DNA of 13,507 nt from a virus (lineage: Duplodnaviria; Heunggongvirae; Uroviricota; Caudoviricetes), in IMG/VR virus record IMGVR_UViG_2526164630_000014, positions 1 through 13,507 of that record; one strand, given 5' to 3'. This document shows positions 207 to 2,393 of the stretch, piece after piece. The notes beneath the pieces were generated by a model. The model saw only the letters and a program-made list of their open reading frames with translations. It made no database searches and was not told where the DNA came from. Each line of letters starts with the position of its first letter. Position 1 is the first letter of the stretch. Both the position numbers and the translations under genes were made by a program.

Positions 207-475
207 TGAACAAGTCCCATGTCGGCAAGCATAAGCACACAGAATATGAAGCCTGCTGCCAGAAAAATGCATTCTGTTGTTGTCATGCCGGGTCTCTCTC
301 GTTTGCTTCTGCTTTCGCCGCCATCATTTCCAGCTTTTGTGAAAGGGATGTGGCTAACGTATGAAATTCTTCGTCTGTTTCTACTGGTATTGGCACAAAC
401 CTGACTCCAATTTCGAGCAAGGCTATGTGCCATCTCGATGCTCGTTCTTAACTCAACAGGAGATGCTTTGTGCAT
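203..475 (-). CDS. orf60a-like small protein, reading frame possibly altered by a 1-nt insertion
   Basis: N-terminus MHKASPVELRTSIEMAHSLA resembles phage lambda orf60a as I recall it; beyond that the alternative frame gives a 63-aa product of lambda-like length, suggesting a single-base insertion near 414. Comparison is from memory. Confidence 0.3.
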   Translation of the reverse strand: MHKASPVELRTSIEMAHSLARNWSQVCANTSRNRRRISYVSHIPFTKAGNDGGESRSKRERPGMTTTECIFLAAGFIFCVLMLADMGLVQ

Positions 476-537
476 ACAGCCCCTCGTTTATTATTTATCT
501 CCTCAGCCAGCCGCTGGGCTTTCAGTGGATTTTGGAT

Positions 538-564
538 AACAGAAAGGCCGGGAAATACCCAGCC
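538..564 (-). terminator. Putative intrinsic terminator downstream of exo (tL3-like)
   Basis: On the minus strand a 7-bp stem (GGCUGGG / CCCGGCC, one G-U pair) with loop UAUUU is followed by UUUCUGUU. Confidence 0.4.
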
Positions 565-660
565 TCGCTTTGTAACGGAGTAGACGAAAGTGATCGTGCC
601 TACCCGGATATTATCGTGAGGATGCTTCATCGCCATTGCTCCCCAAATACAAAACCAATT

Positions 661-1308
661 TCAGCCAGTGCCTCGTCCTATTTTTTCGATGAACTCCGGC
701 ACCATCTCGTCAAAACTCGCCATGTACTTTTCATTCCGCTCAATCACGACATAATGCAGGCCTTCACGCTTCATGCGCGGGTCATAGTTGGCAAAGTACC
801 AGGCATCTTTTCGTGTCACCCACATGCTGTACTGCACCTGGGCCATGTAAGCCGATTTTATGGCCTCGAAACCACCGAGCCGGAACTTCATGAAATCCCG
901 GGAGGTAAACGGGCATTTCAGCTCAAGGCCGTTGCCGTCACTGCATAAACCATCGGGAGAGCAGGCGGTGCGCATACTTTCGTCGCGATAGATGATCGGG
1001 GATTCAGTAACATTCACGCCGGAGGTGAACTCAAAGAGGGTTCTGGCGTCGTTCTCGTACTGTTTTCCCCAGGCCAGAGCCTTAGCGTTAACTTCCGGAG
1101 CCACACCGGTGCAAACCTCAGCCAGCAGGGTGTGGAAGTAGGACATTTTCATGTCAGGCCACTTCTTTCCTGATCGGGGTTTTGCTATTACGTTGTGAAT
1201 TTCTGAAGCTGTGATGACGCCGAGCCGTAATTTGTGCCACGCATCATCTCCCTGTTCGACAGCTCTCACGTCGATCCCAGTACGCTGCAGGATAATGTCC
1301 GGTGTCAT
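661..1308 (-). CDS. exo: Lambda exonuclease (Red alpha), C-terminus frameshifted
   Basis: 215-aa translation is near-identical to lambda Exo up to ...MVPEFIEK, then diverges (IGRGTG*). The canonical C-terminus [16 protein letters not shown] is intact in another frame, ending at 627..629. Implies a single-base insertion near 679. Start overlaps bet stop. Confidence 0.85.
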
Positions 1309-2090
1309 GCTGCCACCTTCTGTTCAGTGGCTTTTTGTTTCAGGAATCCAAGAGCTTTTACTGCTTCGGCCTGTGTCAGTTCTGACGATGCACGAATGTT
1401 GCGGCGAAATATCTGGGAACAGAGCGGCAATAAGTCGTCATCCCATGTTTTATCCAGGGCGATCAGCAGAGTGTTAATTTCCTGCATGGTTTCATCGTTA
1501 ACCGGAGTGATGTCGCGTTCCGGCTGGCGTTCTGCAGTGTATGCAGTATTTTCGACAATGCGCTCGGCTTCATCCTTGTCATAGATACCAGCAAATCCGA
1601 AGGCCAGACGGGCACACTGAATCATAGCTTTATGCCGTAACATCCGTTTAGGATGCGACTGCCACGGCCCCGTGATTTCTCTGCCTTCGCGGGTTTTGAA
1701 TGGTTCGCGGCGGCATTCATCCATCCACTCGGTAACGCAGATCGGATGATTACGGTCCTTGCGGTAAATCCGGCATGTGCAGGATTCATTGTCCTGCTCA
1801 AAGTCCATGCCATCAAACTGCTGGTTTTCGTTGATGATGAGGGACCAGCCATCAACGCCCACCACCGGAACGATGCCGTTCTGCTTATCAGGGAAGGCGT
1901 AAATTTCTTTCGTCCACGGATTAAGGCCGTACTGGTTGGCGACGATCAGCAATGCGATGAACTGCGCATCGCTGGCATCACCTTTAAATGCCGTCTGGCG
2001 AAGAGTGGTGATCAGTTCCTGTGGGTCGACAGAATCCATGCCGACACGTTCAGCCAGCTTCCCAGCCAGCGTTGCGAGTGCTGTACTCAT
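1305..2090 (-). CDS. bet: Red beta single-strand annealing protein
   Basis: 261-aa translation ([26 protein letters not shown]...KVAA) is near-identical to lambda Bet; intact full length. Confidence 0.95.
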
Positions 2091-2095
2091 CCGTT

Positions 2096-2393
2096 TTATA
2101 CCTCTGAATCAATATCAACCTGGTGGTGAGCAATGGTTTCAACCATGTACCGGATGTGTTCTGCCATGCGTTCCTGAAACTCAACATCGTCATCAAACGC
2201 ACGGGTAATGGACTTTTTTGCTGGCCCCGTGGCGTTGCAAATGATCGATGCATAGCGATTCAAACAGGTGCTGGGGCAGGCCTTTTTCCATGTCGTCTGC
2301 CAGTTCTGCCTCTTTCTCTTCACGGGCGATCTGCTGGTAGTGACGCGCCCAGCTCTGAGCCTCAAGACGATCCTGAATGTAATAAGCGTTCAT
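2096..2393 (-). pseudogene. gam: Gam (RecBCD inhibitor) disrupted by a +1 frameshift
   Basis: ORF 2193..2393 encodes the GamS N-terminus ([21 protein letters not shown]...LQRHGASKK), then reads VHYPCV*. The Gam C-terminus [38 protein letters not shown] continues in a different frame (ORF 2096..2365). Extra base at about 2213 (ggaCtttttt). Confidence 0.85.

Follow-up and report, generated by a model that had tools for sequence, protein, structure and literature searches.

Lambdoid prophages recombine, co-resident prophages exchange short patches of sequence, and prophage genes decay in nature. The closest described relatives of the locus studied here are the Red modules of the phages Stx2a_F403 (F403), Min27 and vB_EcoP_24B, in which exo, bet and gam are accompanied by kil, cIII, ea10, orf60a, orf63 and orf61. 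In all Stx-type relatives the normal state of Gam is a protein of 98 aa, whereas Gam of lambda has 138 aa. Known classes of consensus error include homopolymer or incomplete-extension errors in flow-based sequencing and the collapse of near-identical repeats. Lagging extension in flow-based sequencing is expected to leave insertions of the form X^n-Y-[X], in which a homopolymer is followed by the next base and then by the homopolymer base repeated, while replication slippage would alter the run length instead. Here we analyze a prophage contig from a draft Escherichia coli genome that carries the genes of these Red modules in the same order but, unlike them, has five single-base insertions of its own and patches of a second haplotype. 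From comparison with related sequences we consider it likely (probability of roughly 0.8) that the frameshifts are base-calling or consensus errors of the draft assembly and not mutations in the bacterium.

The stretch of DNA analyzed, hereafter the window, corresponds end to end to AIGX01000004.1, a 13,507-bp contig in the 2012 draft assembly of E. coli DEC11C (GCA_000250155.2), and its Bet protein is deposited as EHX18404.1 (Escherichia coli DEC11C). The strain is listed as an O45 STEC in a validation paper (PMC8924650). The contig is short, stands alone and covers the early region of a lambdoid Stx-type prophage. It begins with an orf61-like gene, orf63 (DUF1382), orf60a (DUF1317), exo, bet, gam, kil, cIII and ea10, continues with N, an NYN-domain gene, DUF3024, cI, cro and cII, and then carries an O-like HTH_36 replication gene, the gene of a 968-aa Toprim primase-helicase, and the nin genes DUF7301, lar, ninB and dam. 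Among phages, Stx2a_F403, F451, Min27 and 24B come closest, matching 84% of the window at 99.0–99.3% identity; over positions 1–3327, identity to F403 is 99.1%. A whole-window search of closed genomes returned no exact sibling prophage (best coverage 86%), and the arrangement of the immunity region is absent from closed E. coli genomes (best coverage 74%).

The Red region is recognizable as a lambda-type module: a YqaJ/lambda-exo exonuclease, a RecT-family Bet and Gam are adjacent and co-oriented, with Pfam E-values of 3.2e-30 for YqaJ, 2.8e-32 for RecT and 9e-39 and 9e-24 for the two Gam matches, and gene order and synteny agree with lambda and F403. The Pfam families found across the region are YqaJ, RecT, Gam, Lambda_Kil, Lambda_CIII, DUF2528, DUF1317 and DUF1382. 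As deposited, the three Red frames are not all open and full length, with exo lacking its last 16 codons and gam split at residue 60. Gam (positions 2096–2393, minus strand; the 98-aa form, PF06064) is broken by a private extra base, A or C, at 2212/2213, where the window reads GGACTTTTTT against GGCTTTTTT in 83 relatives and GGATTTTTT in lambda. Residues 1–60 of the Gam reference lie in one frame and residues 59–98 in another, the Pfam Gam positions 1–61 and 53–98 are divided in the same way, and deleting the base at 2212 restores all 98 aa. We also considered the closed 138-aa Gam frame as a lesion specific to the window and rejected it, since the extra A concerned is common to all Stx-type relatives, which annotate the 98-aa Gam.

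At lower coordinates, exo (630–1308, minus strand) carries a private extra T at 679. The open reading frame as assembled spans 661–1308 and encodes 215 aa; residues 1–209 of Exo agree with the reference, a stop follows six codons on, and the final 15–16 codons are encoded perfectly in another frame, so that the last 16 codons are out of frame. A one-base deletion at 679 gives back the full-length reference Exo. The truncated 215-aa protein itself had no record in an exact look-up against a collection of about 15 billion proteins. Farther toward the contig start, the orf63 homologue (DUF1382, 63 aa; 283–475, minus strand) is broken in two by an extra C at 414 that is private to the window, with Pfam DUF1382 positions 1–21 and 21–60 in two different frames, and removing that C restores residues 1–63. 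The orf61-like gene (1–206, minus strand), the 3' end of which is cut by the contig start, has private +1 insertions at 11 and 25, both no more than 25 bases from the contig start. The first, identified by alignment to relatives, turns T3 into T4, and the second (a T or C within 25–27) gives GATTCGCC where relatives have GATCGCC or GATTGCC.

The remaining genes of the region are open. The orf60a homologue (DUF1317; 448–636, minus strand) is intact, with a full-length Pfam match (E = 1.6e-39). On the same strand, bet (RecT family, 1305–2090) retains its frame and has two missense changes, D231N (at 1400) and R84L (at 1840), and kil (2469–2612), cIII (2581–2745) and ea10/DUF2528 (2818–3186) are likewise intact. 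An earlier note on this DNA, made from the sequence alone, had placed the two halves of gam in different frames with an extra base near 2213, and had described exo as losing its last 16 codons to an extra base near 679; both descriptions hold. It had also listed bet, kil, cIII and ea10 as intact, and Pfam matches and comparison with reference proteins agree that their frames are open. Its third break, tentatively assigned to an orf60a-like gene near 414, is real in that an extra C does split a gene there, but Pfam and the lambda annotation identify that gene as orf63/DUF1382 and leave orf60a whole. That the breaks it had noted are +1 insertions beside homopolymers was borne out, with a T run no more than one base from each insertion (T3 at 414, T6 at 679 and 2212). 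The insertions at 11, 25 and 12201, and a base swap at 12235–6, had escaped the earlier note.

The last two of these lie at the opposite end of the contig, in the restriction alleviation gene lar (12096–12333, plus strand), where an extra G at 12201 (GGGGC[G]TATG), private to the window, shifts the frame. Deleting it restores a full-length Lar as found in relatives. At 12235–6, 34 nt past 12201, there is a second change, a GC-to-CG swap that converts G6CA to G5CGA. Farther along the nin flank, dam (12733–13260) is open and carries the missense changes L95P and F149Y, which are absent from the five relatives compared.

Next to the completeness of each gene, we assessed whether the insertions occur in other genomes. 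Probes of 75–81 nt spanning 414, 679, 2212 and 12201 were searched against complete E. coli genomes. The insertion at 414 was present in none of 3,924 copies (2,916 closed genomes) and that at 679 in none of 4,933 copies (3,484 closed genomes), the extra base at 2212 was in no full-length match among 3,884 copies (3,101 closed genomes), and the lar probe over 12201 found no exact match in 681 copies (486 closed genomes), which contained neither the 12201 insertion nor the 12235–6 change. The best match in closed E. coli genomes at 414, 679 and 2212 was always the probe minus exactly one base. As a second comparison, we used a panel of 80 IMG/VR loci found with Bet, together with lambda, F403 and three closed-genome loci; none of these carries any of the five Red-region insertions (11, 25, 414, 679 and 2212), and the 12201 insertion is missing from the fetched relatives that cover lar. 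Alignment to lambda, F403 and two closed E. coli genomes, one of the checks that the earlier note had named, places the extra bases at 414, 679 and 2212/2213 in the window only. The same lesion, as a genuine pseudogene would show it, was found in no independent assembly or close relative; instead, the changes are private to one draft assembly and their removal restores the common protein, as with consensus errors. Among the 81 sequences of the panel including the window, 72 have no private indel at all and the window has the most private single-base ones (five).

Another short draft contig in the panel, L037 (IMGVR_UViG_2526164690_000014), carries three private +1 insertions, near window positions 1274, 2778 and 3093, which suggests that the artefact recurs in draft assemblies of the multi-copy Red module. 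Two proteins were also used as routes to further assemblies. Searching for exact matches of the 265-aa O-like protein brought up CP074824.1; it has the core in common with the window and a different Red haplotype. The NYN protein was uninformative as a route to independent assemblies, as it is a widespread moron that occurs alongside many different Red modules.

The sequence context of the insertions is not uniform. Three changes have the X^n-Y-[X] form, namely A6-T-[A] on the minus strand at 679, G4-C-[G] at 12201 and the change of G6CA to G5CGA at 12235–6; for random insertions, the probability that at least two of six have this form is P = 7e-4. At sites 25 and 2212, two alleles of a known polymorphism stand next to each other in the window: site 25 is polymorphic in the panel (43 loci have ATC, 23 have ATT), and the window reads ATTC, containing both bases, while the core of site 2212 is GGACT in the window, GGCT in 83 loci and GGAT in lambda. 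Judged by these bases, both sites look like merged alleles. Merging was unsupported as a cause at 414 and 679, where the panel has no alternative allele. A change in run length, the type expected from homopolymer overcalling or slippage, is seen only at site 11 and perhaps at 25. Taken as a set, the changes resemble draft-assembly consensus errors in being private +1 insertions beside homopolymers, in the X^n-Y-[X] form, in the side-by-side SNP alleles and in their location in repeats or at a contig end. The resemblance is incomplete in that 414 and 2212, both outside the homopolymer-lag pattern, fit no single simple error model, and 414 matches no simple error model at all.

The distribution of the changes along the contig is equally uneven. 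All six single-base indels are insertions, with no deletions, and they lie only in positions 1–2212 or at 12201. Between them, the core at 6367–12200 (cI, cro, cII, the O-like gene and the primase-helicase gene) differs from the CP074824.1 prophage of strain 7_29_23A by one SNP and no indel, and positions 7183–12200 are identical to Stx2a_F403 except for one extra 21-bp repeat unit in the window. The CP074824.1 prophage is an Stx phage, with Shiga toxin subunit genes encoded downstream, and it shares cI, cro, cII, O and primase with the window; its O-like gene also has as many 21-bp repeats as that of the window. It differs in having a third Red haplotype (97.3% identical) with all Red genes intact, stk in place of the NYN gene, and an intact lar that has neither the 12201 insertion nor the 12235–6 swap. 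The flanks, by contrast with this unique core, are repeated: closed E. coli genomes match the Red and nin probes at up to 4–5 places each, and in the genomes closest to the contig the Red and nin modules are found in 3–4 places per genome. Judging from these related closed genomes, DEC11C itself presumably carries several near-identical Red and nin copies. Decay would be expected to spread substitutions and indels in both directions over the element, yet the core has a single SNP and the insertions are all in the flanks. The changes instead fall in repeated sequence or at contig ends and are accompanied by chimeric alleles, as expected of consensus errors.

Three features of the part between the flanks were recorded in their own right. 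The 21-bp tandem array GGTGGGGCAGGAGCTGCCCGG (3.9 copies, 7991–8075) lies inside the O-like HTH_36 gene, where the extra unit relative to F403 is in-frame, and may represent iteron-like origin repeats. The 968-aa Toprim/AAA_25 primase-helicase (8608–11514) has Hint (Hom_end_hint) and LAGLIDADG_3 matches between its Toprim and ATPase parts, and the 626-aa version in relatives is without these matches, a pattern that suggests an intein-type insertion. Finally, the NYN-domain gene (4640–5497) is flanked by N and DUF3024/cI and takes the place of the stk kinase cassette of F403-type phages; an identical 272-aa NYN protein is present in 650 blocks of the protein collection, and the ten places that were read are lambdoid prophages with differing neighboring modules.

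The Red flank is also a mosaic of alleles. If the F403 haplotype is called type A and that of the 2015C-3163 prophage type B, the window has mainly A alleles and carries B alleles at 192, at 419–646 (A at 437 and 604), at 1024 and at 1527–1650. The B block at 1500–1680 is 100% identical to many genomes and is hence a natural haplotype. The combination is private nonetheless: over 200–2800 no closed genome comes closer to the window than about 20 differences, and none of 4,709 copies has 1024G as an isolated B allele in an A context. At the protein level, Bet is one and the same (WP_000100847.1) in haplotypes A, B and E2865, whereas the exact Bet sequence of the window was found in no other contig in the collection of about 15 billion proteins. 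None of the 80 panel loci has R84L, and only one of them, L007, has D231N. This locus was rejected as a close relative: although listed with 100% Bet identity, it is only 97% identical in its DNA. We also asked whether the insertions mark haplotype switch points. Those at 414 and 679 fall at an A-to-B and a B-to-A switch, respectively, but two of five is not significant, with P about 0.18 on rough arithmetic in which switch intervals make up approximately 16% of the region.

For the origin of the errors we infer a mechanism based on repeat content. In STEC genomes, the Red and nin modules found at the two contig ends exist in multiple nearly identical versions carried by different lambdoid prophages, and reads from different copies, low-quality reads at homopolymers, or both, may have been merged into one consensus. 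Such merging would leave a consensus in which alleles alternate and in which occasional false substitutions and extra single bases appear, and the unique middle of the contig would have assembled cleanly. Poor coverage or quality in the flanks could be an alternative source of the errors. Consensus errors are favored because the insertions are private, point in one direction and are confined to the flanks, because deleting them restores the proteins, and because a unique mixture of alleles in the flanks stands beside a clean core. On this reading, orf63, exo, gam and lar are probably intact in the actual DEC11C prophage.

The earlier note had left the choice between decay of a cryptic prophage and consensus errors in the assembly; the pair of alternatives was well drawn, but the private, flank-confined, insertion-only changes with artefact-type signatures favor the latter and make real decay the less likely of the two. 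Were the orf61-like gene, orf63, exo, gam and lar real pseudogenes with genuine +1 frameshifts, bet would be the only open Red gene of a decaying cryptic prophage. The frame breaks are, after all, present in the deposited sequence, prophage accessory genes are often inactivated, and the NYN-for-stk arrangement, unseen in closed genomes, marks a distinct prophage. However, the four probed insertions are absent from all copies in the 486 to 3,484 closed genomes covered by each probe, none of the six is in any fetched relative covering its site, and there are six insertions against zero deletions. Slippage-like change is limited to site 11 and perhaps 25, while two insertions and the nearby swap show the sequencing-lag pattern. 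Moreover, the changes cluster solely in multi-copy flanks and at a contig end, and decay would need six independent insertions plus several missense changes in <4 kb beside a 5.8-kb core with one substitution. As that core is 1 SNP from a closed-genome prophage, the divergence is too recent for six independent frameshifts nearby, and we consider real pseudogenes unlikely. The more specific proposal that a burst of +1 insertions really removed exo, gam, orf63 and lar and left an open, missense-altered bet as a Bet-only annealing module is rather unlikely too. The earlier note had suggested such a Bet-only recombination module, and that suggestion is weakened because bet has two missense changes, giving a unique protein, while three haplotype groups encode an identical Bet.

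An intermediate case, in which the mosaic is real through gene conversion between co-resident prophages and the insertions are part real and part error, draws on the observation that all allele blocks tested are haplotypes found in nature, such as 1500–1680. It would, however, need a conversion tract of <42 bp to account for the switch at the single site 1024, which none of 4,709 copies shows, and no insertion stands out as more credible than another; we regard it as very unlikely. Functional recoding, with programmed +1/−1 frameshifting or alternative C-termini giving working Exo and Gam variants, finds nothing in its favor beyond the A/T runs near the breaks. The out-of-frame tails are ordinary protein sequence, and no relative has these frames and hence a conserved recoding site. 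The earlier note had allowed for relatives in which the same frames encode intact, differently terminated proteins; we looked for these and found no homologue with the frames of the window, which for practical purposes excludes recoding.

Should the lesions be real after all, they would represent routine pseudogenization of prophage accessory genes, and with the insertions real DEC11C would be an O45 STEC lysogen with a Bet-only annealing module and a replication core nearly identical to that of a closed-genome Stx phage. On the favored reading as consensus errors, the deposited DEC11C proteins, that is the truncated Exo and Gam and the unique Bet, are probably artefacts, and as such they can contaminate protein databases. 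Where older draft STEC genomes show 'pseudogenes' with frameshifts in multi-copy prophage modules, read support is needed before decay is concluded, and the same caution covers claims of Bet-only recombination systems from such drafts.
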